DNA of 35,320 bases from IMG/VR virus record IMGVR_UViG_2869970738_000004. One strand, given 5' to 3'. Position 1 is the stretch's first letter, and each line of letters starts with the position of its first letter. This stretch comes from a virus. Its lineage: Duplodnaviria > Heunggongvirae > Uroviricota > Caudoviricetes. Of the stretch, positions 1,722-32,752 are shown piece by piece. A program made the translations under genes and the position numbers. A model generated the notes under the pieces. The model did no database searches, was not told the DNA's origin, and worked only from the letters and a program-made list of their open reading frames with translations.

Positions 1722-1732
1722 GGGCAAATCCA

Positions 1733-1928
1733 ACGGGATGCCCTCTGATGAGTGAATGGGGGAGGCGTGCTTTGAAGTGAATTTGTGGAAGGCTTCCAGT
1801 GTTGAGAAACATACGCCGCATTCTAGATTGTTACACTGATAATACTTTTGTCTCACGGTGTTTGAATCATTTTCCGGACGACTGGTGCGGATACGGGCAG
1901 ATGCGCCACAAAGCGGACAACGGAACAT
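1733..1928 (-). pseudogene. ogr: Ogr/Delta-family zinc-finger late-gene activator, interrupted by IS2 at about codon 66; remaining 3' codons lie at 332-396
   Basis: N-terminus MFRCPLCGASARIRTSR…YYQCNNLECGVCF matches the Ogr C-x2-C…C-x4-C zinc-finger pattern; the track ORF tail [12 protein letters not shown] is read from the IS2 right end; reading across the TSD restores an 86-aa frame ending …IPWHELPTSHRGNNQMSLPLPQN. Confidence 0.75.
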
Positions 1929-2063: not shown

Positions 2064-5000
2064 TTATTCTGATGTCACTCTTTGCGAGTGAGCTATTTTT
2101 AAATCAGCGTTTCCTTCAAATACTACATTCAACTCATAGTTAAGAGTTAGCTTGAATTTATCTGAGTCACTTTTGATATTCTCTGAAGTGACATTTACTA
2201 ACTTATTATTATCATATTCTCTAATAATTAATTTAGTGAAGTAGTTATCCTTTACCACAAGAGAAAATGGTTGATTAACAAATGGTAAGAAGTAAACCTT
2301 ACGGGTACCGGATTCAGTAGTTATGTTCATAGAGCCATCATCATTTTTTCTCATTAGTTCTCTGAGGTTGGGATTATCGAAAAGCATACGATTATATTGC
2401 TGAAAGATCTCTTTACTCATCACAAGAACCAGTTTGCCAGCCAAGTCAGCAGATGATTTTATGTGATCAATCAACATATTGAAATCTTCTATTACGGTAT
2501 GTTGCGAACAGCCAGTGCTAAATAAATTTGAAAGTATTATTCTCTGGATGTCCTTGAGAATTAAGTCTGCTTGAATATCACCTTCATTGATATAAGGGAT
2601 GGATTCTATTCCTTCGGCATACGGTTCTTTATCTATCTTAATAGATATCTTATGTTTTGTGAAACAATCGCTAGCCTGCTTAAAATCAATAGATTTGAAA
2701 AGTGAAAGAGGGAGCGTTTTCTTGATGCGTTTACGAAGATGTTCTGATGTTTTACGTGCAGTGCTATCTAGTCGATGTACATCTATGGCAGCATCCTGAA
2801 GTCTCATATCAAGATCTTTCTTTAGCATGTTAATATGCTCTTGAAGCAACTTTCTTAAGTTTTCTTTTTTTGTTTGGAGATCGTCCAATGTTAAAGTCAG
2901 CTTGATTTTAGTATATTCGATGGAGTTACAAATTTTTGATAATACTCCAATGAGTCGTTGCTTCTCACGATATGTTATATAGTTGTTTTCTATTGCTTCT
3001 TTTATTTCTTTTGATACGCTATCGTTCTTGTTAGGAAAAATTAATAATAGCTGAACCCATGATTGTTCCATATCAATAAATCCACAGTCAAAAACATTAC
3101 TGTAAACTCTGCCCATCACCATGTCTGTTTTATCATAGTCACGTAAACGCCTTGCTAAACTATTCATCCACCCATTGTGTTCCATATTTTCAGACCATGT
3201 CCACAGGCAGATTCTAATTAATATCTTGATTAGTTGGCTTGCATTATCAATTTCTTCAGTGGGAGTTTCATATCCACCGGTTTGGTCAATAAGTTTACCC
3301 TCTAAAATAAGTTTAATGTAATGTGTCATTAGTTTGTCAGAAGTATTGATTCTTGATGTCAGATAAAGACATGTGCATATACGCATGTCAGTCAACGCAT
3401 TTATGATGGCAATATTGAACCACTCTCTGTCTGAATTGAAGTTTAGTTTTTTGGATATGAAAAAACCCGGGTTAAAAAGCTGGCCTTTGTAACTGTATTT
3501 TTCTACCGAATGGCTGTCAATATTCATTGAGTGCTGCCATCGGTTAATAAGATCGACGGCTGTATCAATAGTAGAAGGATCGCGAGTCTGTGTTGCATCA
3601 ATAATCATCGATGGAAGTTCTTGTAGTTGCGTTTTGCAAAATAATTCAAATAAATCTGAATTCTCTGTATTGCAGAAACGAAAGTTTATGCTTTCTTGAT
3701 ATTGCTCCCAAACAGTGGTATAGGTTCTTAATATACGATTATAACGTGAACGAAGCGAGGCATTTAAGAGTGATTGGTTGTTTCGGAACCATTCTGTTAA
3801 TATTGACCATTGTGAACGAGTAATTCCCATATAGATACAAAGTTCATTGCTGATAAGATGTTTTCTATTATTGATAATACGCACTCCGCTCCAAAGACAT
3901 AATTCAAAAAATCTTTCAGAAAGATTAATTTTATCCATGGAATTATTTGATATTTTATAAACTTCATCTGAAAACTCATATTGAAAACTCCGTTCAAATA
4001 ATTCTGTAGTGATCAGTAAGAAGTTATTGTTGGTATTATCATCTTGAAAAAAATACAAATCGCAGAGATTATTAAAGTTATTAATTAATGCAGAGATAGC
4101 ATTGTCAAAACTAATGAGATCAGAATCCCGCAGATACATATACGTATCTGCTGTTATAGCCTGCATTGTAAGACTTACGGAAAAATCTCCTCCTTTAATC
4201 GGAGCCCTATAAAAACATTGCTTAAGTATTTTTATTAATAAGCTGTCTGGTTTGATATTTTTAACGCTAAAAAGTATCTTACCCGTGGATTCTGTTTCTT
4301 TTGTACGATTATCACCAATGACAAATGACGCAAAATGATTCTTCTTTTTTAGTTGGTAATTAATAAGATTAAGAGTAAGTTGAAAAGGACGGTGATATAA
4401 ACTTAACTCATCTTCCTTAGAATAACTGCTAGCCACAGATATGTATTCTCCTTTGTAATCGGCTTGCTTGATTTCTAAATTTGAATAGTTATGTTTTTGA
4501 TAGATAGGGTATAACCTAAGCTTGGCTGAGATTTTGTTACAAATATGGGGCATTACTATTTCGAAGGCAATGTATCGCTTTATAATTATTTGCCGTTTTA
4601 CATCATCAAGAATTTCAAGACTCACGATAAAGAACCAAATAGAAAGAACTATGTTTATCAAAAGCCATAATATGCTGATTAGACAAGCTATACCATAAAG
4701 ATAACTTCCAAAGACAGTTTTAATTAGTACACTGAGAAGTATAAATCCTGATAAGAAAAGCCCGCTGAGTCCAGCAAGCATGAATCCTGAGTAACGCTGA
4801 TAAGCAGTTTGGGCTATTTTTCTATCTGCCTTTTTTTGGAATAAGATACTTACTAAACCTATAACAAGGGGGTATACAATACCAATAATTGTCAATTGGC
4901 CACTTAAAATGGTTGTTTGCCATTCGGTTAATGAATGCCTAAACGGGAAATAATGTAAAAGATTATTTTTTATAAATAATTCGTTTAAATATCCAACATA

Positions 5001-5183
5001 AAGTAGTACAAATGAAAAAGCTGATATGCAAAGTACTGATTTAACCGGTGAGGATGTTAATCTTATGATGTTTTTTTCAATAAAATTCCATTTTAAATTC
5101 GAATAAAATGGATTTTTAACCATTTTATTACGAACATAGTTCTTTGCTAAAATCTCTGTTGCACTTAAAAATTGTCCAATCAT
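2064..5183 (-). CDS. Hypothetical 1039-aa membrane-anchored protein, AT-rich accessory gene between D and ogr; candidate defence/abortive-infection factor
   Basis: Single uninterrupted ORF; nucleotide composition clearly more AT-rich than flanking phage genes; four hydrophobic helices at about residues 49-190 followed by about 850 aa of Asn/Lys/Ile-rich soluble sequence; no canonical Walker A (GxxxxGK[ST]) seen. Confidence 0.8.
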   Translation of the reverse strand: MIGQFLSATEILAKNYVRNKMVKNPFYSNLKWNFIEKNIIRLTSSPVKSVLCISAFSFVLLYVGYLNELFIKNNLLHYFPFRHSLTEWQTTILSGQLTIIGIVYPLVIGLVSILFQKKADRKIAQTAYQRYSGFMLAGLSGLFLSGFILLSVLIKTVFGSYLYGIACLISILWLLINIVLSIWFFIVSLEILDDVKRQIIIKRYIAFEIVMPHICNKISAKLRLYPIYQKHNYSNLEIKQADYKGEYISVASSYSKEDELSLYHRPFQLTLNLINYQLKKKNHFASFVIGDNRTKETESTGKILFSVKNIKPDSLLIKILKQCFYRAPIKGGDFSVSLTMQAITADTYMYLRDSDLISFDNAISALINNFNNLCDLYFFQDDNTNNNFLLITTELFERSFQYEFSDEVYKISNNSMDKINLSERFFELCLWSGVRIINNRKHLISNELCIYMGITRSQWSILTEWFRNNQSLLNASLRSRYNRILRTYTTVWEQYQESINFRFCNTENSDLFELFCKTQLQELPSMIIDATQTRDPSTIDTAVDLINRWQHSMNIDSHSVEKYSYKGQLFNPGFFISKKLNFNSDREWFNIAIINALTDMRICTCLYLTSRINTSDKLMTHYIKLILEGKLIDQTGGYETPTEEIDNASQLIKILIRICLWTWSENMEHNGWMNSLARRLRDYDKTDMVMGRVYSNVFDCGFIDMEQSWVQLLLIFPNKNDSVSKEIKEAIENNYITYREKQRLIGVLSKICNSIEYTKIKLTLTLDDLQTKKENLRKLLQEHINMLKKDLDMRLQDAAIDVHRLDSTARKTSEHLRKRIKKTLPLSLFKSIDFKQASDCFTKHKISIKIDKEPYAEGIESIPYINEGDIQADLILKDIQRIILSNLFSTGCSQHTVIEDFNMLIDHIKSSADLAGKLVLVMSKEIFQQYNRMLFDNPNLRELMRKNDDGSMNITTESGTRKVYFLPFVNQPFSLVVKDNYFTKLIIREYDNNKLVNVTSENIKSDSDKFKLTLNYELNVVFEGNADLKIAHSQRVTSE

Positions 5184-7883: not shown

Positions 7884-8359
7884 TGGCTGTGCCAAAACAT
7901 CTTCGCTTTTTTACGCTGTTTGTGGATGGTGAAAACGAAGTGGGTAATGTGACGTCCGTCACTCTGCCTAAGCTGACGCGCAAAACCGACAGCTACCGGG
8001 GTGGTGGCATGATGGGTGCGGTAAGTATTGATCTCGGTCTGGACGACTCCGCGCTTGATGCGAGCTTTGTCATGGGGGCGCAGTTCGTGAGCTGTTCCTT
8101 AAGTATGGCGGCACGATTGACGGCACGCTGCTGCGTTTTGCGGGTGAATACTACACCGATGCAGAAAGCGACCTGTATGAAGTCGAAATGCGCGGACGTG
8201 TGACGGAAATTGATATGGGGGAAGCCAAACAGGGCGAAGCCACATCACACACTTACGCCATTAAAACACCTACTACAAGCTGAGTGTTAACGATCGCCCG
8301 TTGTGGGAGATTGACCTGCTGAACTTCATTTACCGGAAGGACGGGGTAATGACTCCAAC

Positions 8360-8737
8360 TTATTGATAGTGTTTTATGTTCAGATAATGCCCGATGACTT
8401 TGTCATGCAGCTCCACCGATTTTGAGAACGACAGCGACTTCCGTCCCAGCCGTGCCAGGTGCTGCCTCAGATTCAGGTTATGCCGCTCAATTCGCTGCGT
8501 ATATCGCTTGCTGATTACGTGCAGCTTTCCCTTCAGGCGGGATTCATACAGTGGCCAGCCATCCGTCATCCATATCACCACGTCAAAGGGTGACAGCAAG
8601 CTCATAAGACGCCCCAGCGTCGCCATAGTGCGTTCACCGAATACGTGCGCAACAACCGTCTTCCGGAGCCTGTCATACGCGTAAAACAGCCAGCGCTGGC
8701 GCGATTTAGCCCCGACGTATCCCCACTGTTCGTCCAT
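8360..8737 (-). CDS. insB: IS1 InsB reading frame (expressed as InsAB' by frameshifting)
   Basis: 125-aa [51 protein letters not shown]…. Confidence 0.85.
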
Positions 8738-8781
8738 TTCCGCGCAGACGATGACGTCACTGCCCGGCTGTATGCGCGAGG

Positions 8782-9057
8782 TTACCGACTGCGGCCTGAG
8801 TTTTTTAAGTGACGTAAAATCGTGTTGAGGCTAACGCCCATAATGCGTGCAGTTGCCCGGCATCCAACGCCATTCATGGCCATATCAATAATTTTCTGGT
8901 GCGTACCGGGTTGAGAAGCGGTGTAAGTGAACTGCAGTTGCCATGTTTTACGGCAGTGAGAGCAGAGATAGCGCTGATGTCCGGCAGTGCTTTTGCCGTT
9001 ACGCACCACCCCGTCAGTAGCTGAACAGGAGGGACAGCTGATAGAAACAGAAGCCAC
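8782..9057 (-). CDS. insA: IS1 InsA
   Basis: 91-aa [46 protein letters not shown]…. Confidence 0.9.
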
Positions 9058-9225
9058 TGGAGCACCTCAAAAACACCATCATACACTAAATCAGTAAGTT
9101 GGCAGCATCACCGAAGGACGGCAAGGACATTGTGCCCGATCGCATCCGTTCCGCGCTTGGGCTTGGCTGATAAGTAATATGCTGGCGGCGCAGTGCGTCG
9201 CCTCTGACTGAAAAGGAGACAACAG

Positions 9226-13098: not shown

Positions 13099-13732
13099 CA
13101 TTTTCCTGAGTCTGCCCGGTTGTTTCTTCAGTCTGTATATCGCCTACAGGGTGATAACGATAAATCGTCGATGTGCCAATGCCGTAAATTATTGCCAGTT
13201 GTTTTCTGTCGTGCCCGTTTTTGATTAGCCTTGCTATTTGCTCATGCTGTTCTTTTGTCAGCTTCGGTCGACGTCCGCCTGTGCGCCCCCTTGCGCGCGC
13301 TGCCGCCAGCCCGGCCAGTGTACGTTCAACAATTAATTCACGTTCCATTTCAGCCAGGGCACCCATCACGTGGAAGAAAAAACGCCCCATTGGAGAAGAT
13401 GTGTCTATGCTGTCGGTCAGACTGCGAAAATTAATCCCTCGCTCCCGTAGTTCCCCGACGAGAGAAATCAGATGTTTCATGCTTCGCCCGAGGCGATCCA
13501 GTTTCCAGACAACCAGCGTGTCACCTTTTTGAAGGCGCTTTAAAGCGCGTTTTAATCCCGGTCGGTCTGTCTTTGTCCCGCTTAATTTATCTTCAAATAT
13601 TTGTTCACATCCTGCACAAACAAGAGCGTTTCGTTGCAGGTCTGTATTGTTGATACCCTTACATAGCCAATCAGCACACTGAATCTCCCGTCCAAAAGCG
13701 CAAATCATGCCATGCAGGCCAGAAACGGCCAT
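13088..13732 (-). pseudogene. Gin/Pin/Cin/Hin-family serine DNA invertase, N-terminal frameshift separating the catalytic-serine motif from the body
   Basis: Body matches invertases (…NTDLQRNALVCAGCEQIFEDKLSGT.TDRPGLKRAL…HTH); the motif LIGYVRVST is encoded in a different frame from NTDLQ, consistent with a 10-bp deletion between short ATA repeats. Confidence 0.8.
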
Positions 13733-13756
13733 TATTTAAAACCTCGGTTTACAGGA
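13731..13756. other. gix/cix-like invertase crossover site (distal)
   Basis: TTATTTAAAACCTCGGTTTACAGGAA abutting the invertase start; shares the core ACCTCGGTTTAC with an inverted copy at 17965-17990. Confidence 0.65.
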
Positions 13757-13781
13757 AACGGTAAACAGGGCTGGTAACGCC

Positions 13782-14618
13782 GTGCAAAAAAATGGCGATA
13801 CCTTGTCCGGTGGGCTTACTTTTGAAAATGACTCAATCCTTGCCTGGATTCGAAATACTGACTGGGCGAAGATTGGATTTAAAAATGATGCCGATGGTGA
13901 CACTGATTCATACATGTGGTTTGAAACAGGCGACAACGGCAATGAATATTTCAAATGGAGAAGCCGCCAGAGCACCACAACAAAAGACCTGATGACGCTG
14001 AAATGGGATGCACTAAATATTCTTGTTAATGCTGTCATTAATGGCAGTCTTGGAGTTGGTTCGACGAATGCGTTAGGTGGTAGCTCTATTGTTCTTGGTG
14101 ATAATGACACCGGATTTAAACAGAATGGAGACGGTATTCTGGATGTTTATGCTAATAGTCAGCGTGTATTCCGCTTTCAGAATGGAGTGGCTATTGCTTT
14201 TAAAAATATTCAGGCCGGGGATGGTAAAAAATTCACGCTATCCAGCTCCAACAACTTCACAAAGAATGCAACGTTTAATTTATGGGGTGCTTCAACCCGT
14301 CCAGTAGTTGCAGAGTTAGGCGATGAGGCAGGATGGCATTTCTATAGCCAGCGAAATACAGATAACTCGGTAATATTTTCTGTTAACGGTCAGATACAGC
14401 CCAGCAACTGGGGGAATTTTGATTCACGCTATGTAAAAGATGTTCGCCTGGGTACGCGTGTTGTTCAATTGATGGCGCGTGGTGGTCGTTATGAAAAAGC
14501 CGGACACGCAATTACCGGATTAAGAATCATTGGTGAAGTAGATGGCGATGATGAAGCCATCTTCAGACCAATACAAAAATACATCAATGGCACATGGTAT
14601 AACGTCGCACAGGTGTAA
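13782..14618 (+). CDS. Alternative tail-fibre C-terminal (receptor-binding) cassette in the silent orientation; coding continuity starts at the crossover site near 13757
   Basis: ORF ends …[11 protein letters not shown], paralleling the reconstructed end of H (…INGTWYNAGSI); frame is continuous back to the gix core. Confidence 0.7.
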
Positions 14619-14621
14619 ATT

Positions 14622-15150
14622 ATGCAGCATATTAAAAAATATTAAGTCCGGAAATCCAAAAACAAAAGAACAATATCAGCTAACAAAGAATTTTGATGTT
14701 ATCTGGTTATGGTCCGAAGACGGTAAAAACTGGTATGAGGAAGTAAATAACTTTCAGGACGACACCATAAAGATTGTATACGACGAAAATAATATTATTG
14801 TTGCCATAACCAAAGATGCCTCAACGCTTAATCCCGAAGGCTTTAGTGTCGTTGAGATTCCAGATATAACAGCCAATCGTCGCGCCGATGATTCAGGGAA
14901 GTGGATGTTTAAGGACGGAACTGTGGTTAAGCGGATTTATACAGCAGACGAACAGCAACAACAGGCCGAATCACAAAAGGTCGCGTTGCTTTCTGAAGCT
15001 GAAAGCGTTATTCAGCCACTGGAACGCGCTGTCAGGCTGAATATGGCGATGGATGAGGAACGCACACGACTGGAGTCATGGGAACGCTACAGCGTTCTGG
15101 TCAGCCGTGTGGATACAGCAAATCCCGAATGGCCACAAAAGCCTGAGTAA
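14622..15150 (+). pseudogene. Tail-fibre assembly protein (alternative copy) with +1 frameshift in an A6 run at codons 5-7
   Basis: ATG at 14622 reads MQHIKKY then stop; the homologous body ([17 protein letters not shown]…) is in the next frame; the paralogue on the other strand reads [22 protein letters not shown]. Confidence 0.6.
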
Positions 15151-15155
15151 AAATT

Positions 15156-15175
15156 AAGGCCCAATATCGGGCCTT
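15156..15175. terminator. Hairpin between the two convergent tail-fibre assembly genes
   Basis: AAGGCCC-AATATC-GGGCCTT. Confidence 0.5.
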
Positions 15176-15178
15176 CTC

Positions 15179-15712
15179 TCATTCTGGTTGTTCGGGAAAC
15201 GTTACTGGCAGGCTGGAGGTGTCTGTAGATTCGACTTTCTGCGCATAGAGCATCCACTCGGTTAATTTTTGTTTATTCTCGTCGGAAATGATGCCCAGCC
15301 GTAGCTGTGAGTCCCATAGCTGGGTTTTATCCCTGACAAGTTGCAACAGGCTTTGCTTTTCATTTTCCGCTTGTTGCCTCTGCTCTTCCTCGGTATAAGT
15401 TCGCTTTATCACTACGCCATCTTTGAACAACCATTTCCCCGAAATATCAGCCCGGCGATTTGCTGTAATATCAGGTAATTCAACGACGCTTGCGCCTTCC
15501 GGATTAATTGCTGAAACATCCTTTTCAATACAAATAATAACGCCGTTATGGTCATAGACCATTTTCAAAGTGTCTGGCTGGAAATTCTTTTGCTCCTCAT
15601 ACCAGTTTTTTCCATCATCTGAATAAAGCCATTTGATGTTAAATTGCTTTGTTAGCTGGTATTGCTCTTTTGTTTTAGGGTTGCCAGCAGTAATGTTTTT
15701 TAAGTGCATCAT
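15179..15712 (-). CDS. Tail-fibre assembly protein (P2 gpG / Mu U-like), expressed orientation
   Basis: 177-aa [23 protein letters not shown]…; start 2 nt after the reconstructed H stop. Confidence 0.85.
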   Translation of the reverse strand: MMHLKNITAGNPKTKEQYQLTKQFNIKWLYSDDGKNWYEEQKNFQPDTLKMVYDHNGVIICIEKDVSAINPEGASVVELPDITANRRADISGKWLFKDGVVIKRTYTEEEQRQQAENEKQSLLQLVRDKTQLWDSQLRLGIISDENKQKLTEWMLYAQKVESTDTSSLPVTFPEQPE

Positions 15713-15840
15713 CGTTAAATACTCCCCGCGTTATACCACGTCCCATTAATGCAATACTGAATTGGCCTTGCCTGTGTTGTATCAATTAATTCATCACGGT
15801 TTCCGTTAACTGAACCCGTAACGACGGTAATGACTCCAAC

Positions 15841-16218
15841 TTATTGATAGTGTTTTATGTTCAGATAATGCCCGATGACTTTGTCATGCAGCTCCACCGA
15901 TTTTGAGAACGACAGCGACTTCCGTCCCAGCCGTGCCAGGTGCTGCCTCAGATTCAGGTTATGCCGCTCAATTCGCTGCGTATATCGCTTGCTGATTACG
16001 TGCAGCTTTCCCTTCAGGCGGGATTCATACAGTGGCCAGCCATCCGTCATCCATATCACCACGTCAAAGGGTGACAGCAAGCTCATAAGACGCCCCAGCG
16101 TCGCCATAGTGCGTTCACCGAATACGTGCGCCACAACCGTCTTCCGGAGCCTGTCATACGCGTAAAACAGCCAGCGCTGGCGCGATTTAGCCCCGACGTA
16201 TCCCCACTGTTCGTCCAT
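15841..16218 (-). CDS. insB: IS1 InsB reading frame
   Basis: Protein identical to copy 1. Confidence 0.85.
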
Positions 16219-16262
16219 TTCCGCGCAGACGATGACGTCACTGCCCGGCTGTATGCGCGAGG

Positions 16263-16538
16263 TTACCGACTGCGGCCTGAGTTTTTTAAGTGACGTAAAA
16301 TCGTGTTGAGGCTAACGCCCATAATGCGTGCAGTTGCCCGGCATCCAACGCCATTCATGGCCATATCAATAATTTTCTGGTGCGTACCGGGTTGAGAAGC
16401 GGTGTAAGTGAACTGCAGTTGCCATGTTTTACGGCAGTGAGAGCAGAGATAGCGCTGATGTCCGGCAGTGCTTTTGCCGTTACGCACCACCCCGTCAGTA
16501 GCTGAACAGGAGGGACAGCTGATAGAAACAGAAGCCAC
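16263..16538 (-). CDS. insA: IS1 InsA
   Basis: Protein identical to copy 1. Confidence 0.9.
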
Positions 16539-16793
16539 TGGAGCACCTCAAAAACACCATCATACACTAAATCAGTAAGTTGGCAGCATCACCCGTAACG
16601 ACATAACCTGACCTGTCAGACCAGCCGGGACCATTCCATGTCTGAACAGATGACAGACCGCCAAGGCGAATACCTGTAATAAACCTTGAGTTACATTCTG
16701 CCCGCGTATATGCACCAACATCTCCCGCTGAAGGTTTTCGTGTCGTGGTATAGAAATCTGACCAACCTAATTCAACCCGGTAATGACTCCAAC

Positions 16794-17171
16794 TTATTGA
16801 TAGTGTTTTATGTTCAGATAATGCCCGATGACTTTGTCATGCAGCTCCACCGATTTTGAGAACGACAGCGACTTCCGTCCCAGCCGTGCCAGGTGCTGCC
16901 TCAGATTCAGGTTATGCCGCTCAATTCGCTGCGTATATCGCTTGCTGATTACGTGCAGCTTTCCCTTCAGGCGGGATTCATACAGTGGCCAGCCATCCGT
17001 CATCCATATCACCACGTCAAAGGGTGACAGCAAGCTCATAAGACGCCCCTGCGTCGCCATAGTGCGTTCACCGAATACGTGCGCAACAACCGTCTTCCGG
17101 AGCCTGTCATACGCGTAAAACAGCCAGCGCTGGCGCGATTTAGCCCCGACGTATCCCCACTGTTCGTCCAT
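16794..17171 (-). CDS. insB: IS1 InsB reading frame
   Basis: 125-aa ORF. Confidence 0.85.
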
Positions 17172-17215
17172 TTCCGCGCAGACGATGACGTCACTGCCCG
17201 GCTGTATGCGCGAGG

Positions 17216-17491
17216 TTACCGACTGCGGCCTGAGTTTTTTAAGTGACGTAAAATCGTGTTGAGGCTAACGCCCATAATGCGTGCAGTTGCCCGGCATCCA
17301 ACGCCATTCATGGCCATATCAATAATTTTCTGGTGCGTACCGGGTTGAGAAGCGGTGTAAGTGAACTGCAGTTGCCATGTTTTACGGCAGTGAGAGCAGA
17401 GATAGCGCTGATGTCCGGCAGTGCTTTTGCCGTTACGCACCACCCCGTCAGTAGCTGAACAGGAGGGACAGCTGATAGAAACAGAAGCCAC
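17216..17491 (-). CDS. insA: IS1 InsA
   Basis: 91-aa ORF. Confidence 0.9.
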
Positions 17492-17964
17492 TGGAGCACC
17501 TCAAAAACACCATCATACACTAAATCAGTAAGTTGGCAGCATCACCATTCAACCCCATAACCATCATGAGCCGACCTGTAGGAAATGCCACCATTTTTAT
17601 AATTCACACGGAATTGTACGGCAGGACAGCTACCAGCATTTATATTAAAGTGAAGAATTAATGCAGATGCACCACCAATCAGGGCGTTATATGCACTACT
17701 ATCCCAATTCCATCCAATGGATGTATCACCATTAACAGTATTACCTGTTTGTCGGAGTGCAAATGCATTGACATTTTTGGCACTAATTGAAATATCGCTA
17801 GAACCATCAAAACCAACTCCAGCAATTTTTCGTGCTGTTTTCAGCTTTGTTGCAGTAGCGGCATTGCCGGACAGTTCCCCAGAAAGGCCACCGCTGAATG
17901 TTTGTCGATTGGTCCAGGTATTCGCTGTACTGAGTAACGGTATTTTCTCCCCGCTTGTGCCGAG

Positions 17965-17990
17965 TTCTCGTAAACCGAGGTATTCGATAA
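17965..17990. other. gix/cix-like crossover site (proximal), inside H at the constant/variable boundary (about codon 426)
   Basis: Reverse complement TTATCGAATACCTCGGTTTACGAGAA shares 12-bp core ACCTCGGTTTAC and TTAT flank with the site at 13731-13756, in inverted orientation. Confidence 0.6.
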
Positions 17991-18360
17991 CGGCAGCAAC
18001 GATCGATTTCGCAAGAATATCCCGCCCGACTTTTGTCAGGGTTGCCAGGCTGGCGACATCATTCCCCGTAAAATACGGAAACCTGTCTGCCGCAGTAGCA
18101 AGCCCGGCCAGCGCCGTCAGGGTGGCATCTTTCGGTTGCTTACCCGCAAGCGCGTTAGTCATGGTGGTCGCAAAATTCGGGTCGTTTCCCAGCGCCGCCG
18201 CTAACTCGTTCAGCGTATTCAGTGCGTCAGGTGACGAATCTACAAGGGCGGCAATCGCAGCCATAACGAAAGCCGTGCTTGCGATTTGGGTATTATTCGT
18301 TCCCTGTCGCGCAGTTGGCGTTGTTGGCGTTCCGGTCAGCGCAGGACTGTTTAAGGGCGC

Positions 18361-18726
18361 TTTCTTGTTCGTTTCATCCATTACCGCCTTAACCGCTTTC
18401 GATGTCGCGGCCAGTGTTTCAGACGTGCTGTTGGTGGCACTACTGAGCTGGACTATCCCTTTTTGTGCCGTCGTGGCGTCCTGAGCGGTATATTTTGCGT
18501 TAGCAAGGTCATACGCGGCCTTTACTGCTTTCGGCGTTGCAGCCTGCGTTTCAGACGTGCTGTTGGTGGCGCTACTGAGCTGGACAAGGCCTTTTCGCGT
18601 CGTGCTGGCATCCTGCGCAGTATATTTACCGTTAGCAAGATCATACGCGGCCTTTACTGCTTTCGGCGTTGCAGCCTGCGTTTCAGACACGCTGTTAGTG
18701 GCGCTACTGAGTTGAACAAAGCCTTT
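18361..18726 (-). repeat. About 2.8 tandem copies of a 132-bp (44-aa) in-frame coding repeat within H
   Basis: Protein repeats KG[FLI]VQLSSATNS.SETQAATPKAVKAAYDLAN.KYTAQDA; nucleotide period visible as GTTAGCAAG[GA]TCATACGCGGCC recurring 132 bp apart. Confidence 0.8.
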
Positions 18727-19256
18727 TGCGGTCAGCGAGGCGTCCGGGTGACGTCGTGACTGTTCATGCTCTTTCAGTTTGTCATCCACGTAATCCACTG
18801 TGGCCATCACCATGGTGTTGTCCACGGTAAGCGCCACGGTGGCAGTGCTGGATACGGTCAGAATGGTGCGAAATGTTTGTGCACGACCGGACCCTTCGGC
18901 AACGGCTGGCTTGTAACTTTCGGCAGTATTTCCCACCGCGATTAAATCGCCGTGCTCATCAAATACACCAATTTCCCGGATCCAGAATCCGCCCGTTTCA
19001 GGAGGAATAACCAGCTCCGCAATAATGCGGTTCTGATGTGTTGCGTCCAGGATGACGCGATTAACAGTATGTCGCCACACCTCATGCACCAGACGGGTCT
19101 GCTTACTGTCTGGTGTGGGCAACGTGCCGCCACCGTCGCCCACGGCCATATGAGTCAGGCGGACAGGCTTACCATCTGGCGCGGCTACCTGAGCTAATTT
19201 TTTTGCACCCGTATCGGTGATAATGGTTTTAAATTTTCGTGTTGTGGTACTCATGC

Positions 19257-19820
19257 TTAATCGCCTGGATAAATGGTAATAACTTCACCGTCATAAGTTG
19301 CCGCCGCTGCGAAAATATCCCCCGGAATTTCCTGAATGATATTCAGCCCTGTCATGTGGCGGCTGACCGGGCGGGCATCAGCAATCAACCGCTCCATTTC
19401 CAGATACATTTCCTCCGTCACGCCACTGTCCAGCGTGCCGACTTCAACGGTAAATGTTCCCGGTTCTCCGCCGAACTCCCACCACTCAGACACGCGAATG
19501 AGGTATCCCAGCGGCTCAATGGCCCGGCGCAGTGCGCTGATGGTCCCTTTGTGTCGGTGTATCAGCCATGCATCACGAATAACCTGTCGCTTTGTCTCTT
19601 CCGGCCAGTTGCGATCCCAGCGGTCAACGGAAAACGCCCAGGCGAGATAAGGCAGCAGATGCACCGGGCAGGTGTCCGGCGACCACAGCGTGTTGAGGTC
19701 TACCGGAATGTCTGTAATGCGTGTTCCGACGGCTTCGGCACAACGCATGAAATTGCTGGCTGATGGTGGTAACAACGAATTACTCATTGCGTCCACCTTC
19801 GCTGATGGTGAATGACTCAC
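19257..19820 (-). CDS. I: Baseplate protein (P2 gpI-like)
   Basis: 187-aa ORF in canonical position between J and H. Confidence 0.8.
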   Translation of the reverse strand: MSHSPSAKVDAMSNSLLPPSASNFMRCAEAVGTRITDIPVDLNTLWSPDTCPVHLLPYLAWAFSVDRWDRNWPEETKRQVIRDAWLIHRHKGTISALRRAIEPLGYLIRVSEWWEFGGEPGTFTVEVGTLDSGVTEEMYLEMERLIADARPVSRHMTGLNIIQEIPGDIFAAAATYDGEVITIYPGD

Positions 19821-20676
19821 AGCGCGCCGCCTGTATGTCGCTGATGGCCATATTCTGTGTGGGTTCGATTATCTCCACGCGTTGCACACCGTGCACATGC
19901 AGTGCGGCAGCAATGGCGGACAACGCCACGTCCTGACCGATAAGCCCCTGCTCAGCCAGCCACTTCCTGAACGACGATTCAGCCGCGGCCAGAATAGGTT
20001 CGGATTCCGGGCCGGGGTAAAAGTACAGTTTTGCATTCAGCCGCCATGTCACGATTCTGGCACTCTGTACGGTCAGGCGGTCGGCCACCGGGCGGGTATC
20101 CTCTGCATTCAGAACGGCGCGAACGGTATTAAGCAACGCCTCCGTTGCTGTGCCGTCGCCCTCAGTGGACAGGATGGAAACCGTCACGTTGGCCGGAGAC
20201 GGGCTGATGGCCCGCGCATCGCGTACCAGACCGCTGGCGCTGCGTGCAAAATACTCGTATGCACCTGACGGGCCAGCAACACTCAGACCGTCATATGCCC
20301 GTTGCGCCCGTAGTCTCAGCGAGGTGTCACTTTCCATCACTGCATCGGTGGTATCCGTTGCCGGAGTGATAACCAGGCGCTTTGTGTTCATATTGCCCGC
20401 GAGGTTGTCCAGGTCTGTCCCGGCGCTGTGGCTTAGCATGCAGGCGCGTGCACCCTCATTGACCCGCTGGCGTAACAGCATTTCACGAAACGACATGGTT
20501 TGAGCGATAACGTTAAGGGGTTCCGATTCCAGCTCCAGCGCGGCGGAAACGGCTTCACGCTGTTCGGCGGGATAGGACGCAATCATCATGGCCTTTGTGT
20601 CAGCCAGAATTGCCTCAAAGTCAGGCTCCGCGATGATGGCGGGTTCCGGTAACTGTGAAAGGTCAACGGCAGGCAT
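19780..20676 (-). CDS. J: Baseplate protein (P2 gpJ-like)
   Basis: 298-aa ORF between W and I. Confidence 0.8.
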   Translation of the reverse strand: MPAVDLSQLPEPAIIAEPDFEAILADTKAMMIASYPAEQREAVSAALELESEPLNVIAQTMSFREMLLRQRVNEGARACMLSHSAGTDLDNLAGNMNTKRLVITPATDTTDAVMESDTSLRLRAQRAYDGLSVAGPSGAYEYFARSASGLVRDARAISPSPANVTVSILSTEGDGTATEALLNTVRAVLNAEDTRPVADRLTVQSARIVTWRLNAKLYFYPGPESEPILAAAESSFRKWLAEQGLIGQDVALSAIAAALHVHGVQRVEIIEPTQNMAISDIQAARCESFTISEGGRNE

Positions 20677-20679
20677 GAT

Positions 20680-21030
20680 TTACTCCCTCAGCGTGATGGT
20701 TAATTCAACATTCTGCATGGTCTGCATGACAGTGCCCGACAGCGTCACCCCGGCGCGGCCTCCTGCCTTCCAGACAACGTCGATAGCGTCCAGGGCAATG
20801 CGGGGTTCCCATCGTGTCAGCGCAATCACGGCAGCACTCATGCATTGCAGACGCGTGGTGTTATTCATGGGTTCGTCAATCAAATCAGGCACAAGGCTGC
20901 CATATTCCCGTCGCATAACCCGGCTTGCCAGCGGGGTGGTCAGGATGTCCCTGACTGACTGTTTCAGGTGCTCCATATCGTTCAGGTTTCCCGTTCCGTC
21001 CGGGTTCATTCCTGTGTAGCGGGTTGTCAC
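20680..21030 (-). CDS. W: Baseplate wedge protein (P2 gpW-like)
   Basis: 116-aa ORF (…DLEHL.QS..DILTTP…SRVMRR.YGSL…) after V. Confidence 0.85.
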   Translation of the reverse strand: MTTRYTGMNPDGTGNLNDMEHLKQSVRDILTTPLASRVMRREYGSLVPDLIDEPMNNTTRLQCMSAAVIALTRWEPRIALDAIDVVWKAGGRAGVTLSGTVMQTMQNVELTITLRE

Positions 21031-21608
21031 TGCGGGCCTCCTGTCGAATCGCTGCCACCTTTAACGCCACCGTGTTTATGCGTATGCACTGTGATGCCGT
21101 TTGAGGTGAAATTGCCGCCGCTGTGCGTGATATTGCCGCTCATCTTTCCCCCTTTTGTGACGTCAAGCGTCGCCGTTCTCAGAAGGTCTGTGCATTCCAC
21201 GACGGGCGTATCCAGTGTCACGCTGACGGATGCCTGCAGGGTGGCTGTTTTCATGCCGCTGGCGCTCAGTGCGCCTGCGTCCGCGTCGTAGCGGAACACC
21301 GCGCCATCCGGCGCGCTGACCACGATTTCTTTCAGGCTTTTGCCGGGGGCCGGAATGGCATCACTCCACAGGCTGCCAATTATCATGGCGGTTTCCGGGT
21401 TGCCGCCAATGCAGGCAATTACCACCTGTTCGCCTGGTGATGGCGGCAGCCACACATTGAAGGCTCCCGCGCGAGTGGTGTTCCAGCGCAGCCAACCTGT
21501 TTCCAGTTCGCCGCTGCGAACGCGCACGCGCCAGGACTTCTCATCAACTTCAGAGATGATCCCGGTGCGGATGATATTGCTCAGTAGCCGCATGAGTTCT
21601 GCGCTCAC
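21027..21608 (-). CDS. V: Baseplate spike / assembly protein (P2 gpV-like)
   Basis: 193-aa ORF with gpV-like sequence (…IRTGII…GEQV…HTHKH.G…). Confidence 0.85.
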   Translation of the reverse strand: MSAELMRLLSNIIRTGIISEVDEKSWRVRVRSGELETGWLRWNTTRAGAFNVWLPPSPGEQVVIACIGGNPETAMIIGSLWSDAIPAPGKSLKEIVVSAPDGAVFRYDADAGALSASGMKTATLQASVSVTLDTPVVECTDLLRTATLDVTKGGKMSGNITHSGGNFTSNGITVHTHKHGGVKGGSDSTGGPQ

Positions 21609-22249
21609 CGTACAGCCTCTGCAATCCGGCCCAGCACCGTGTTATAAATCGGGCGCTCATCTGCCTGGCTGATACCCAGCAGCTCACGTACCGGGTAATC
21701 GGTGAAAATGCCCGGCGCAACCTGATCGCGCTCACCGAACTGATGAACGCGTGCAATACGTGCGGCCACGCCGCTGTAACCCACCGTCACACCGGAAGCA
21801 TCTGCACGGGCTTTCAGGTAGCGGGCGGTGCGCAGTTTTACGAACATGGGGACGCGCTTTGTGCTGTCCTGGTTGATGCGCCGGGTGCGTATTTCCAGAA
21901 AGCGGTCGATGTCATCCCGGTAAAACGTGCGGATGCTGTTTTTATCCTCATCCCACCCGGTGATGGTTCGCCCGTATTTCCCCGTGTCGTGATGCCAGTT
22001 TTTCAGCGTGCGTGCTTCGTTATTCCAGATAAAGCGAATGCGCTCCTGTATCCGGGTTACGTGGCGTCTGCGTGGTGTCCATGCGGTCCCGTCCGGCGCT
22101 TTCTGTGACCGGATACGTGCCTGCTGGGCGCGGCGTAAATCCTGTGCCAGCTTTCTGGCGATGTTATTGATGGCCTGCTGATTCAGGCTGTCGCGGATGG
22201 CTTCAAAGGTTTCATCCACGCGAGTGAATGCCTTATCCATCGCTTTCAC
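21605..22249 (-). CDS. S: Tail completion / virion morphogenesis protein (gpS-like)
   Basis: 214-aa ORF between R and V, overlapping both by 4 nt. Confidence 0.65.
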   Translation of the reverse strand: MKAMDKAFTRVDETFEAIRDSLNQQAINNIARKLAQDLRRAQQARIRSQKAPDGTAWTPRRRHVTRIQERIRFIWNNEARTLKNWHHDTGKYGRTITGWDEDKNSIRTFYRDDIDRFLEIRTRRINQDSTKRVPMFVKLRTARYLKARADASGVTVGYSGVAARIARVHQFGERDQVAPGIFTDYPVRELLGISQADERPIYNTVLGRIAEAVR

Positions 22250-22700
22250 CCCACGTCACATCCTGGAATACATGCGACCAGTCGCCTTCGGAAGATGGCA
22301 GGCGGGGTTTTGGCTCCAGCAGGTGTTCTGCCTGCGGTGTGCCCTGACTGCTGCGCGTGATGCGAACGCGTTCCCGCAGGGGGAGCGTAAACAGGAGATC
22401 GGCGCTGTCATCGTCATTGATAACGGCGGAGAATTTGATGTCCTGATTACGCTCAGGGTTGAGCAACAACTGTGGCTGATTTTCGGATAACCACGCCAGC
22501 AGCGGCAGCGTGAGGTCGTCCAGCTCCCCGGCGTAATCCATGACAAACATCACCATCTGATAGCGGTAAACAAACGATGGGGTTTCTCCGGTCGTTTCAA
22601 TGTTGCCGCTCTCCACGAAAATGGTGAATTTTTCCGGGTTAGCCTGACACCATCGGCATGAACGGGTCATGGCTTCACGCAGGGAATCAGTTTTCAGCAT
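22233..22700 (-). CDS. R: Tail completion protein (P2 gpR-like)
   Basis: 155-aa ORF MLKTDSLREAM…LAWLSENQP…. Confidence 0.8.
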   Translation of the reverse strand: MLKTDSLREAMTRSCRWCQANPEKFTIFVESGNIETTGETPSFVYRYQMVMFVMDYAGELDDLTLPLLAWLSENQPQLLLNPERNQDIKFSAVINDDDSADLLFTLPLRERVRITRSSQGTPQAEHLLEPKPRLPSSEGDWSHVFQDVTWGESDG

Positions 22701-23244
22701 GGTTGTTATCCTCGTTGTTCAGTCGTTGCAGCCTGCGCTGTTCCAGTAATTCAATGGCCCGTTTATCCGCGTTACAGGTTTCCAGTGCATCCAGAAGGCG
22801 GTCGCCCCATATACCGAGATTTCCCCATGTGGGAGTGTCAGGGAAGGGGGAGGCGTTACCGGTATGGTCAGCGTCTGCGGTATAAGCCGGACTGACGGCG
22901 CTGGCAGTGGCGCGTTCTGCGTGCCTGCGCAGCCTGTCAGTAAAACGAGCGTCAGGCAAAGCGTGGGCGCATTCATCTTTTGCAATATCGTTGCGTAGCT
23001 GTTCACGTCTTACCTCTCCGTCCTGATTGCGTTGCTGATTTTCCACGCGGAGTTGCGCCAGCACCTGCTGCATATCCTGTACCCCGGCGCTGATGATATT
23101 CAGGGTGTCGGCGGTACTTTTCAGGGTGCTGGCCTGCGCTTCGTTTCTGGCGTTCTCCCGGCCCAGCGACCACGACAGACGCATGGATGTTCCCCATCCG
23201 GCAGTCAGAAGGAAAGCGACGCCAAGCGTGGGCCAGAGCTTCAT
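22687..23244 (-). CDS. lysB: Rz-like inner-membrane spanin (LysB-like); likely start at the internal Met (MKLWPTLGVAFLLTAGWG…)
   Basis: N-terminal TM helix then coiled-coil-rich periplasmic domain; ATGA overlap with the endolysin stop. Confidence 0.7.
   Translation of the reverse strand: MKLWPTLGVAFLLTAGWGTSMRLSWSLGRENARNEAQASTLKSTADTLNIISAGVQDMQQVLAQLRVENQQRNQDGEVRREQLRNDIAKDECAHALPDARFTDRLRRHAERATASAVSPAYTADADHTGNASPFPDTPTWGNLGIWGDRLLDALETCNADKRAIELLEQRRLQRLNNEDNNHAEN
22719..22976 (-). CDS. lysC: Rz1-like outer-membrane lipoprotein spanin (LysC-like) embedded in lysB in another frame
   Basis: MNAPTLCLTLVLLTGCAG lipobox signal followed by Pro-rich sequence. Confidence 0.6.
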   Translation of the reverse strand: MNAPTLCLTLVLLTGCAGTQNAPLPAPSVRLIPQTLTIPVTPPPSLTLPHGEISVYGATAFWMHWKPVTRINGPLNYWNSAGCND

Positions 23245-24158
23245 GCCGGATAGGCTCCGTGTGGTAACTGAAAATGCGGTCCGTCTTTCAGGGTCTTCCA
23301 GTCGCCGCCCCATTCCACCGGAATATTCAGTTCCCGGCTGGCCTGTCTGAATGCTGCTGCGATTTTTTCGTACAGCGGCCATTCCCATGACACCTGGCTG
23401 CCGATATAAGCCACAACATCCACGGCATGCCCCGTAAGGTGGCGGCTGTTCATGGTCTGGCTCTTACCCGTGGCCACCAGTTGCTTCTGGCGGTAACGGC
23501 TGCGCAACCCTTCGGTGATACCAAAATCCACTTCCGAGATTTCCAGTGCCCGTCGGGTCACTTTCACCAGATCAGGATTTACACCCTGCAAATTCTTTTC
23601 GCTCCGGCTGCTGAATTTAAATGTGTTGCTCATTCGTCCTTCTCCTTCACTCTGGATACTGTTAAACGTCATCACCGCCTGACGTTGCTGTGCCGTGAAT
23701 TTCAGGCGCTCAGTGCCCAGGCTTGCCGGGGTGTCGGTCATCGCCAGCCCGACCAGATAGGCGCGCCCGTTAACGGAGAACTGCGGGTGCAGTTCGATAC
23801 TGGAATAGATTTTCTTGCCGTCCGCAACAAGCTGCTTCATGCGCTCGGTCGGTTCGATTTCTGCATACAGCGCAGTACGTCCGGCCAGCGGACCTTCCGT
23901 AATGTCTTCCGTACTCAGTGCGGTGACATCGCCCATTGCGGAAAATTCGCTTGACGGGCATGGCGAGAGATAGTGCTCAACGTTCACGCGGGCAGCGTAA
24001 ACATCCGGGTTGAAGTTCTCGGCGGCTTCACGCAGATGCACCGGACTGATTTCACGGCCATCAACAGTTGATCCGGAGACAGCCACGCGAAACTTTTTGC
24101 GGGATGTCTTTTTTTCATTAGCCATAGTTTTTGCCCCTCTGACTGGTTCTTCAGTCAT
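23241..24158 (-). CDS. In-frame fusion of a gpO (capsid scaffold) N-terminal fragment with an M15-peptidase endolysin; the endolysin may initiate separately at the internal Met near 23633
   Basis: Residues 12-160 are gpO-like (…FRVAVSGSTVDGREIS…YLVGLAMTDTPASLGTE…); residues 176-305 are M15 endolysin-like (MSNTFKFSSRSEKNLQGVNPDL…HLTGHAVDV…); an AGGAGAAGG RBS is translated within the linker. Confidence 0.7.
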   Translation of the reverse strand: MTEEPVRGAKTMANEKKTSRKKFRVAVSGSTVDGREISPVHLREAAENFNPDVYAARVNVEHYLSPCPSSEFSAMGDVTALSTEDITEGPLAGRTALYAEIEPTERMKQLVADGKKIYSSIELHPQFSVNGRAYLVGLAMTDTPASLGTERLKFTAQQRQAVMTFNSIQSEGEGRMSNTFKFSSRSEKNLQGVNPDLVKVTRRALEISEVDFGITEGLRSRYRQKQLVATGKSQTMNSRHLTGHAVDVVAYIGSQVSWEWPLYEKIAAAFRQASRELNIPVEWGGDWKTLKDGPHFQLPHGAYPA

Positions 24159-25927
24159 GATGGCAAAGCGTAACAGGCTGATACAAAGGGCTTTTGTTGT
24201 AAGAAAACGGCCAGAACAGAGGGTTAAGGAGAACAGTTTCGCGCGCGGGTAATCTTCCTGTAATTACTCAGGGGAGCAATGATTCAGGACGCTTTTGTGC
24301 GCCAGCGTGCGCGGCAACTTTACTGGCAGGGTTATCCGCCCGCAGAAATATCACGTCTGATGGGAATAAACCCGAACACGATTTATGCGTGGAAAAAACG
24401 TGACCAGTGGGATGAAACGCCACCCGGGCAGCGTGTCACGCAGTCCATCGATGCGCGCCTCATCCAGCTTACTGAAAAACAGAATAAAACAGGCGGTGAC
24501 TTTAAGGAAATAGACCTGCTGACCCGGCAGCTTAAAAAGCTGCATGATGGCCAGCCGGATGTGATGGCCGCAGGAAAGAAAGGCCGGGCGAAAAAACTCA
24601 AAAATCATTTCACGCCGGAACAGATTGCCGCACTGCGGGAAAAAATCATCAGCAGGCTGGAGTGGCATCAGCGGGGCTGGTTTGACTCCCTGACCCTTTG
24701 CAGGGAAGCCGGGATACGTAACAGGATGATCCTGAAATCCCGACAGATTGGGGCGACCTGGTATTTTGCACAGGAAGCACTGCTGATGGCGCTGCGTGAC
24801 GATGTGGCGCAACCTTACCAGCGTAACCAGATTTTTTTGTCTGCGTCGCGTCGTCAGGCGTTCCAGTTTAAAAGCATTATTCAGAAGGCGCGGCTGAAGT
24901 TGATGTGGAGCTGAAAGGGGGCGATAAAATCATCCTCTCCAACGGCGCAGAGCTGCATTTTCTCGGCATTTCTGCTGCGTCGGCACAGTCCTATACGGGC
25001 AATTTTTATTTTGATGAATTTTTCTGGGTCAGTCGCTTTGCTGAACTGCGCAAGGTGGCTGGCGCTATGGCAACCCTCAGCGGACTGCGGCGCACCTACT
25101 TCTCCACGCCATCCACCGAAACGCACGAGGCATACGCCTACTGGAACGGCGACCGCTGGAACGAGAAAAAGGCCTCGCATAAACGCCAGCGTTTTTCTGT
25201 GGACTGGAAAACGCTGCATAACGGGCTTATCTGCCCTGACCGGACGTGGCGGCAAATTGTCACGCTGGAAGATGTGGTTAATCACGGCTGGAAACACACC
25301 GATATCGACGAAATTCGTGATGAAAACACCGAAGACGAGTTCCTCAATCTCTATATGTGCGAGTTTGTCCGCGAAGGGGAATCGGCATTTAACCTGAATA
25401 TCCTGATTGGCTGCGGCGTTGACGGATACGACGACTGGAAAGACTGGAAACCTTTTGCTCCCCGCCCGATGGGGAATCGTCCGGTATGGATTGGGTATGA
25501 CGCAAACGGCAGCAGTGGCAACGGCGACAGCGGCGCTGTGTCCGTGGTGGTTCCTCCGTCTGTTCCTGGTGGCCGTTTTCGAACGGTGGAGACGCGACGC
25601 GTTCAGGGGCTGGAGTTTGAAGAACAGGCCAGAGTCATTGAAGAGTTCACGTGTCGCTACAACGTGGAACACATCGGCATTGATGTGACGGGCGGGAACG
25701 GGGAGGCTGTTTATCAGATAGTGAAACGGTTTTTCCCTGCCGCTATTCCGTACACCTTCACGCTGTCATCAAAACGGTCGCTGGTACTGAAAATGCTGCA
25801 AATAATGCGTGCCGGGCGGTGGGAATACGATCGCGCCGAACGCGAGCTGGTCGCGGCCTTTAACGCCGTGCGGGTGATGCTGCCAACTTACTGATTTAGT
25901 GTATGATGGTGTTTTTGAGGTGCTCCA

Positions 25928-26203
25928 GTGGCTTCTGTTTCTATCAGCTGTCCCTCCTGTTCAGCTACTGACGGGGTGGTGCGTAACGGCAAAAGCACTG
26001 CCGGACATCAGCGCTATCTCTGCTCTCATTGCCGTAAAACATGGCAACTACAGTTCACTTACACCGCCTCTCAGCCCGGTACGCACCAGAAAATCATTGA
26101 TATGGCCATGAATGGCGTCGGATGTCGTGCCAGTGCACGCATTATGGGCGTTGGCCTCAACACGATTTTACGTCACTTAAAAAACTCAGGCCGCAGTCGG
26201 TAA
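25928..26203 (+). CDS. insA: IS1 InsA
   Basis: 91-aa ORF. Confidence 0.9.
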
Positions 26204-26247
26204 CCTCGCGCATACAGCCGGGCAGTGACGTCATCGTCTGCGCGGAA

Positions 26248-26625
26248 ATGGACGAACAGTGGGGATACGTCGGGGCTAAATCGCGCCAGCGCTGGCTGTT
26301 TTACGCGTATGACAGGCTCCGGAAGACGGTTGTTGCGCACGTATTCGGTGAACGCACTATGGCGACGCAGGGGCGTCTTATGAGCTTGCTGTCACCCTTT
26401 GACGTGGTGATATGGATGACGGATGGCTGGCCACTGTATGAATCCCGCCTGAAGGGAAAGCTGCACGTAATCAGCAAGCGATATACGCAGCGAATTGAGC
26501 GGCATAACCTGAATCTGAGGCAGCACCTGGCACGGCTGGGACGGAAGTCGCTGTCGTTCTCAAAATCGGTGGAGCTGCATGACAAAGTCATCGGGCATTA
26601 TCTGAACATAAAACACTATCAATAA
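26248..26625 (+). CDS. insB: IS1 InsB reading frame
   Basis: MDEQWGY… portion of track ORF 26122-26625. Confidence 0.85.
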
Positions 26626-26805
26626 GTTGGAGTCATTACCCGCCGTGCGTAAGGTGAAAACACCGGGCGGCTTTATCACTTACGAAACGGACCGAGCGAG
26701 GGGGATCAGCCACGGCGACCTTGCGTGGGTAACCATGCTTGCTGTCATTAACGAACCGATTGGCGGCGAAGGAGAAAACGAGCGTTTCACGGTTATGGAG
26801 TTCTG

Positions 26806-27863
26806 ATGAGCAGAAAAAATAAAAAAGTGCGCATGAGTTCACGCATTGATCTCGCTGATGCGCTCAGGAAAGAATCATCGCTCAGTGCATTCACATTTGA
26901 TGGTCCTTATCGCCTGACCGGGCATGACCTGCTGGACAATATGTACTGTGCTGATAACGGGCGGTGGTATGAACCCCGGTGGACTGGTACGGTCTGGCAA
27001 GAGCTGCCCGGCAAACGTCTTGGCATCAGTCTGCGCTTTACTTTAAGCGCAATGTATTGCTCGGTTGCTACATCCCGCACCCGCTGCTTTCCCGGTAGGA
27101 TTTCTCGGCGCTGGCGCTGGCGCTGGCGCTGGACTGGTTTGTGTTCGGTAACGCATTCCTTGAGCTTCGAAGCAATATGCTCGGCGAACCGCTTAAATTA
27201 CGGCACGCCCTGGCGAAATACATGCGACGCGGAAGCGATCTTGAATCATGGTGGTATGTGCAGGATGGCAAGGATGCGTTTCAGTTTCGCCCAGGCAAAG
27301 TGTGTCACCTGATGAATCCTGACATTAACCAGGAAATCTACGGCATGCCGGAATATCTCGGCGCATTACTCTCGGCCAGCCTGTCTCATTCGGCGGACAT
27401 GTTCAGAAAACTGTATTACGACAACGGATCCCACGCCGGGTGCATCATCTACATCGGTGCCGCGCAGGTAAACCGCGAAAGCATGGACTCCCTGAAAGAA
27501 ACGCTACAGGGTGCGCGTGGTGGTGGTGCGTTTAAAAACGTGCTCATTCATGCGCCCAACGGGGGCAAAGAGGGGGTGCAAATTTTGCCGTTCCAGCAGA
27601 TCACCGCAAAGGATGAGTTCATGAATGTTAAGGCGGCATCCCGTGATGATGTGCTGGCTGCGCACCGCGTTCCGCCGCAACTGATGGGGGCGATGCCGGG
27701 TGAAAAAAGTGCGTTTGGTGATGTGGAGAAGGCCGCGCGGGTTTACGCAATTAACGAGCTGATGCCCGTCATGGAGGCCATGAAGCACATCAATGACTGG
27801 CTTGGCGAAGAGGTGATCCGCTTTAACCCTTACGCACTGTTAGACATCCAGCCCACATCCTGA
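26806..27863 (+). pseudogene. Q: Portal protein (P2 gpQ-like), frameshift at about 27095-27125 next to a (GCGCTG)4 repeat
   Basis: Two overlapping track ORFs (26806-27312 and 27141-27863); the downstream portal frame (…ALALALALDWFVFGNAFLE…AAHRVPPQLMG…) is closed upstream by TAG at about 27097. Confidence 0.8.
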
Positions 27864-32487: not shown

Positions 32488-32752
32488 AACCGAAGAACAC
32501 GGCGGTGCGGAGTCCGGAGAGTAACGGAATAGCAGAGAGCTTCGTGAAAACGATAAAGCGTGACTACATCAGTATCATGCCCAAACCAGACGGGTTAACG
32601 GCAGCAAAGAACCTTGCAGAGGCGTTCGAGCATTATAACGAATGGCATCCGCATAGTGCGCTGGGTTATCGCTCGCCACGGGAATATCTGCGGCAGCGGG
32701 CTTGTAATGGGTTAAGTGATAACAGATGTCTGGAAATATAGGGGCAAATCCA
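32488..32752 (+). mobile_element. IS2 right-end fragment (about 265 bp; 3' part of insD plus right end), abutting IS911
   Basis: Matches the complete IS2 from about 1468 to 1732; encodes …[19 protein letters not shown]…NRCLEI. Confidence 0.9.

Follow-up and report, generated by a model that had tools for sequence, protein, structure and literature searches.

What produced a single open reading frame (ORF) that begins as a phage head scaffold protein and ends as an endolysin, and does its product serve the lineage that carries it? The ORF lies in a window of 35,320 nucleotides (the whole stretch of DNA that was analyzed; Caudoviricetes, IMG/VR record IMGVR_UViG_2869970738_000004). A sequence-only reading of this window had attributed the fusion to a deletion. 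With high confidence, we read this ORF as the scar of a deletion in a P88-like (Xuanwuvirus, P2-type) prophage that is defective and adjoins ihfA. The host is most likely Shigella boydii, an assignment drawn from the names of near-identical proteins. The features of the fusion and of the adjoining lysis genes are as follows.

23241..24158, minus strand: chimeric ORF, 305 aa from the start of the longest ORF (ATG 24158)
23241..24125, minus strand: chimeric ORF from the probable true start, 294 aa (the longest ORF adds 11 codons)
23645..24125, minus strand: gpO-derived part, codons 1 to ~160
23645..23654, minus strand: deletion junction, the single remaining copy of the 10-bp direct repeat CAGGGTGAAG
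23634..23644, minus strand: holin 3' remnant, the last 11 nt before the endolysin ATG, with the Shine-Dalgarno sequence AAGGAG
23241..23633, minus strand: entire coding sequence of the endolysin (130 codons and a stop), an M15/LAS L-Ala-D-Glu endopeptidase
22687..23244, minus strand: lysB/lysC spanin pair, with a C-run at ~22846-22851 that is short by 1 nt

The ORF at 23241..24158 (minus strand) was confirmed to be present in the window. Its probable true start is the ATG at 24125 (MANEKK...), which aligns with the starts of P2 and P88 gpO; the identical 294-aa sequence is recorded once, in NCBI chromosome CP026795.1. A Pfam search with the 305-aa ORF matched residues 21-169 to Phage_GPO (E 8.8e-64), with only the N-terminal half of the profile covered (positions 2-149 of 268), and residues 233-298 to Peptidase_M15_4 (PF13539; E 3.8e-11). 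PHROGs matches were to head maturation protease/scaffold and to endolysin, and a search of NCBIfam with the chimera gave no match. Pfam, PHROGs and tblastn thus agree with the original description of a gpO-like N-terminal part followed by an M15-peptidase endolysin.

The gpO of P2 has a protease domain at residues 1-141, containing S107, and a scaffolding domain at residues 195-284 that is needed for procapsid assembly (PMC7552001). When P88 gpO was searched against the window by tblastn, residues 1-161 matched 24125-23643 with 98% identity. Alignment to P2 gpO showed that the N-terminal serine-protease domain (the equivalent of P2 residues 1-141) is complete, that the catalytic serine is retained (S109 here, at the position of P2 S107) and that the P2 141/142 boundary has its positional counterpart in F143/T144. 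The two other residues of the P2 triad, Asp and His, which Chang et al. reportedly identified in 2009 as D19 and H48, align with D22 and H51 of the chimera. Failure of the N-terminal part to align with gpO had been named in advance as a result that would speak against a deletion; it does align, catalytic serine included. The C-terminal scaffolding domain (P2 195-284) is absent, and gpO residues 162-278 were found neither by tblastn nor in the alignment. The comparison with P2 gpO (PF05929) is therefore mixed: the protease domain aligns and P is a divergently transcribed neighbor in both P2 and the window, whereas the scaffolding domain and most of the middle region, which P2 gpO keeps, have given way to an endolysin. 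The usual gene position of the family is also only half kept, with P adjoining (24279, plus strand) and capsid gene N missing from the whole window. Lacking the scaffolding domain, the chimera does not qualify for full membership of the gpO family.

Judged by its sequence, the C-terminal part is a genuine endolysin of the M15 type, bereft of its holin. All 130 of its 130 residues are identical to the P88 endolysin (tblastn, 23633-23244), and the zinc-ligand motif SxHxxGxAxD can be read as SRHLTGHAVD, with the C-terminal His in DGPHF. Matches in the PDB to the C-terminal 126-130 residues included Serratia ChiX (5opz, E 3e-47) and phage T5 endolysin (2mxz, E 6e-22). Both match this part of the chimera over the full length; they stand alone at ~130 aa, whereas the endolysin here has a 164-residue N-terminal extension and no holin partner. 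What is left of the holin gene is 25 nt of its 3' end, and tblastn detected no holin match in the window. This 3' end, GTGAAGGAGAAGGACGA, read in the endolysin frame, makes up the linker (...SEGEGR-M), which in general form is ...Q-S/G-E-G-E-G-R-M, with S or G according to the state of residue 159 in each strain. The linker had been described as a translation of the endolysin's ribosome-binding site; the Shine-Dalgarno AAGGAG is indeed included, but the linker is holin-gene DNA and comprises more than that site. The endolysin's own Shine-Dalgarno sequence and ATG are now internal to the fusion ORF.

The lysis cassette was said to keep its endolysin and spanins without a holin. The endolysin and the holin loss were borne out, but the spanins are only partly kept, since LysB and LysC are fused in the window. 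Loss of 1 nt at ~22846-22851 makes LysB (i-spanin) read into the C-terminus of LysC (o-spanin), giving 185 aa, and throws LysC out of frame. P88, the prophage of E. coli 1190 and most S. boydii loci have C6 here, and the majority of relatives have both spanins intact; the window, two S. boydii assemblies (L007 and L009) and E. coli ETEC4088 have C5. The C5 state could be a real polymorphism or a long-read homopolymer error.

Among phages, Escherichia phage P88 (NC_026014; Xuanwuvirus, Peduoviridae) comes closest; it is P2-like and inducible and forms plaques (PMC5285337). P88 and the near-intact prophages of E. coli strains 1190 and ETEC4088 served as intact comparators. The window has P88-like synteny and high nucleotide identity across the structural genes: its gene order is that of P88 and the P88-like prophages, with 97-99.7% nucleotide identity in tail, lysis and packaging genes. 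The 1190 prophage is 99.5% identical on the O side, and that of ETEC4088 shows 99.5-99.7% identity across its structural genes. In both, the order O-N-M-L-X-holin-endolysin is intact. The intact relatives thus have separate genes for O (278 aa), N, M, L, X, holin and endolysin, whereas the window is shorter by ~3.38 kb and has additional insertion sequences and frameshifts. The prophage adjoins ihfA-pheT-pheS-rplT-rpmI-infC-thrS, which lie past the left end of the window (locus L014, 13486-19120), and the near-intact ETEC4088 prophage occupies the same ihfA-adjacent chromosomal site.

Comparison with these relatives located the junction precisely. P88 has CAGGGTGAAG twice, at 14777-14786 and 18161-18170, 3,384 bp apart. 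The first copy lies within gpO codons 158-161; the second is near the end of the holin gene, and 12 nt separate it from the endolysin ATG (P88 18182, overlapping the holin stop). The prophage of E. coli 1190 also has both copies, 3,385 bp apart. The window is colinear with P88 on either side (17970-23654 corresponds to P88 23846-18161, and 23645-25872 to P88 14786-12557), and a single copy of the repeat remains, with O sequence on one flank and GAGAAGGACGA-ATG of the endolysin on the other. The window's own copy reads CAGAGTGAAG, owing to a private G>A change that gives G159S. The two P88 positions enclose the last 118 codons of O together with the capsid gene N, the small terminase gene M, L, X and the holin gene. 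The breakpoint, which had been expected at 23640-23700, is placed by the P88 and E. coli prophage comparison at 23645-23654. The proposal of a single deletion from mid-O to just before the endolysin is upheld by the colinear flanks and the one 10-bp repeat at the junction, as is the reported absence of N, M, L, X and holin: with all P88 proteins as queries, tblastn found no match to any of the five within the window. Between the start of O and the ATG of the endolysin 492 nt remain (164 codons), with no stop among the four codons of the linker; because 492 is a multiple of three, the protease domain was fused in frame by chance. The repeat backs a microhomology mechanism without, we stress, proving it, because 10-base repeats are common (hundreds of chance pairs in a 36-kb genome).

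The fusion traces to one clonal event. The identical junction was found in 11 other loci or assemblies, including the chromosome of S. boydii CDC 3083-94 and short-read Logan assemblies, and all 11 carry the exact CAGGGTGAAG at the junction. In a collection of 5.8 billion proteins, nine two-domain proteins were among the matches listed. Each has 294 aa, they share at least 99% identity, and S. boydii (CDC 3083-94 and others) is the source wherever one is named; one variant occurs on at least 92 contigs. The remaining matches listed were ordinary gpO proteins of 220-309 aa, mostly 278 aa. Among 1.84 billion representatives clustered at 50% identity, none of the best 150 matches spans both halves; each covers either query residues 1 to ~161 or ~165 to 294. 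Of 5,426 complete E. coli genomes, 1,137 carry the two halves apart and none contains the junction in one place; no phage record has both halves together either. Since the fusions are near-identical and these searches turned up none elsewhere, we conclude that a single event was inherited clonally. A natural family of O-endolysin fusions, the other finding singled out beforehand as counting against a deletion, did not appear. We rejected such a family because neither the 5.8-billion-protein nor the 1.84-billion-representative search yielded a divergent member.

The state of the rest of the prophage bears on whether the fusion could matter to its host. The relevant features are these.

24126..24278: intergenic region between the divergent genes O and P, almost the same in intact relatives
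24279..26803, plus strand: large terminase P pseudogene, with a 1-nt deletion at ~24889 and IS1 at 25873-26640
26806..27863, plus strand: portal Q pseudogene, frameshifted by loss of 1 nt at ~26972
8345-9112, 15826-16593, 16779-17546 and 25873-26640: four IS1 copies, with mutual identity of 98.3-99.9%

P and Q lie directly upstream on the other strand (from 24279 and from 26806, both plus), as had been stated, though both are disrupted. Their frameshifts are common to all the S. boydii relatives examined, every one of which has split portal ORFs; the frameshifts are therefore old lesions of the same prophage. The IS1 in P was seen in this strain only among the relatives examined. Q also has an in-frame 12-bp expansion of a GCGCTG repeat (27107-27118). 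One IS1 copy interrupts the tail tube gene FII, two sit in the invertible tail-fiber segment and one in terminase P; FII carries two 1-nt deletions in addition to its IS1 (8345-9112). In some sister strains IS1 is followed directly by a tail tube fragment, and the segment from tail fiber assembly to tape measure is absent, which we interpret as a further IS1-associated deletion. The invertible tail-fiber segment (13728-17994), located beside a DNA invertase gene, is in the opposite orientation to that of ETEC4088 and is split by two IS1 copies.

The control and replication functions have fared no better. Neither gpA (replication) nor cox gave a tblastn match in the window when all P88 proteins were used as queries, and the replication region instead contains IS3-family fragments and a truncated ParM. 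In the late activator gene ogr (1692-1928, minus strand), the last ~21 codons relative to P88 are replaced by an IS3-family element of ~1.33 kb (402-1732), while the zinc-finger part (Ogr_Delta) is intact. By analogy with P2, the O/P intergenic region (24126..24278) would correspond to the late promoter region pO/pP. An exact match to TGT-N12-ACA, the Ogr-type activator site, was not found in this interval; across the window there are 12 matches against 9.2 expected, so the motif has no discriminating value here. Two copies of a 265-bp direct repeat, 100% identical, are present at 1468-1732 and 32488-32752. They appear to be the ends of IS3-family elements on both sides of the prophage, and recombination between them could delete nearly the whole element. 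The gene set of a viable phage (capsid, both terminase subunits, portal, gpA and lysis cassette) is incomplete here. The label "capsid-less" given to the element is correct in that there is no capsid gene, but it is too narrow: the prophage is broadly degraded and the fusion is one scar among many. We also considered an R-type tailocin and rejected it, given the two 1-nt deletions and IS1 in FII, the two IS1 copies in the fiber segment and the deleted holin.

A separate observation concerns a 1039-aa ORF at 2064-5183 (minus strand), between tail gene D and ogr. Searches of Pfam, PADLOC, NCBIfam and PHROGs, and a tblastn search of 50,697 phage records, gave no match to this ORF. Five of the 5,426 complete E. 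coli genomes carry it at full length, where it is annotated as an "MFS transporter" or as hypothetical, and the ETEC4088 prophage has it in the same slot. It is a large prophage cargo gene without assigned function.

If the fusion were a domesticated gene under selection, it might act as a self-processing pro-endolysin, from which the gpO protease would free the endolysin by cutting at 143/144, or as a scaffold-less protease that hinders capsid assembly by superinfecting P2-like phages. Retention of the protease-domain region, with Ser109 (P2 S107) and the position equivalent to P2 141/142 (PMC7552001), fits such a role, as do an endolysin that is 100% identical to that of P88 and a reading frame that stays open throughout the assemblies, of which there are roughly 100 or more. 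Yet these assemblies represent one clonal lineage with at least 99% identity, and hence give no sign of purifying selection. The neighboring genes decay freely, the protein has neither a holin nor an export signal, late transcription is unlikely with ogr truncated and gpA absent, and the architecture has arisen independently nowhere among the best 150 representative matches. We therefore consider selection for such a gene very improbable, and are slightly more skeptical still that the lineage keeps the fusion as a functional protein, be it a self-cleaving pro-endolysin or a dominant-negative protease. In the latter case, Ogr/Delta from an incoming P2-like phage or P4-like satellite would switch the protease on, and the protease would sabotage that phage's capsid maturation. 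That the fusion ORF is open in every assembly seen while its neighbors P and Q are frameshifted could hint at retention, but with divergence of <1% among the copies, and with R, S, W, J and I open too, there is no power to detect selection.

The deletion itself might be the work of insertion sequences, through an IS1-mediated adjacent deletion or IS-IS recombination rather than microhomology. The prophage does carry four IS1 copies and IS3-family elements, and the tail segment missing from some sister strains looks like an IS1-associated loss. No IS sequence or IS end is present at the junction, however, and the flanks run unbroken into one 10-bp repeat, both copies of which are present in intact relatives; an IS origin accordingly seems to us extremely unlikely. 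We give least credence of all, indeed next to none, to the junction being an assembly or sequencing artifact or a member of a natural fusion family in intact phages. Several single-base differences do fall in homopolymer runs and may be long-read errors. A 3.4-kb loss cannot be explained as a homopolymer error, and the junction recurs in 11 other independently assembled records, among them CP001063.1 and Logan short-read contigs. A natural family is opposed by the lack of a divergent fusion in either protein search and of any phage record with both halves together.

The reading we favor is the deletion scar. Recombination or slippage between the two 10-bp CAGGGTGAAG copies would have removed ~3,384 bp, and with it gpO residues ~161 to 278, N, M, L, X and nearly the whole holin gene. 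We infer that the route was replication slippage or RecA-independent illegitimate recombination. Deletions mediated by short repeats (slipped mispairing, independent of RecA) and prophage decay are established in Shigella genomes. As in those cases, one repeat copy is left in a setting rich in IS elements and pseudogenes; nothing differs in kind, and the in-frame joining is the sole unusual outcome.

Capsid formation, DNA packaging and holin-dependent lysis would all be impossible for the resulting element. Transcription of the fusion would start from the conserved O/P late promoter region. Because gpA is missing and ogr is truncated, late transcription is probably silent unless Ogr/Delta is supplied in trans. 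Trans-activation of the late operon would yield a cytoplasmic gpO'-endolysin chimera of ~32 kDa. Free endolysin might be made as well, either by translation that initiates at the internal Shine-Dalgarno site and ATG or through self-cleavage of gpO at 143/144. Without a holin, neither product would be expected to reach the murein, and no lysis would follow. We judge the fusion to be non-adaptive because it is one lesion among many.

The locus is therefore of a kind already known, an ordinary scar of prophage pseudogenization, and its ORF is already public. It reveals no new system, and its significance extends little beyond annotation. S. boydii records label the gene "phage capsid scaffolding protein (GpO)"; a better flag would be chimeric pseudogene remnant of a defective prophage. 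As an example it is a clean, textbook microhomology-mediated deletion, in which both ancestral repeats are visible in close intact relatives, and the junction could serve as a clonal marker of this S. boydii lineage.
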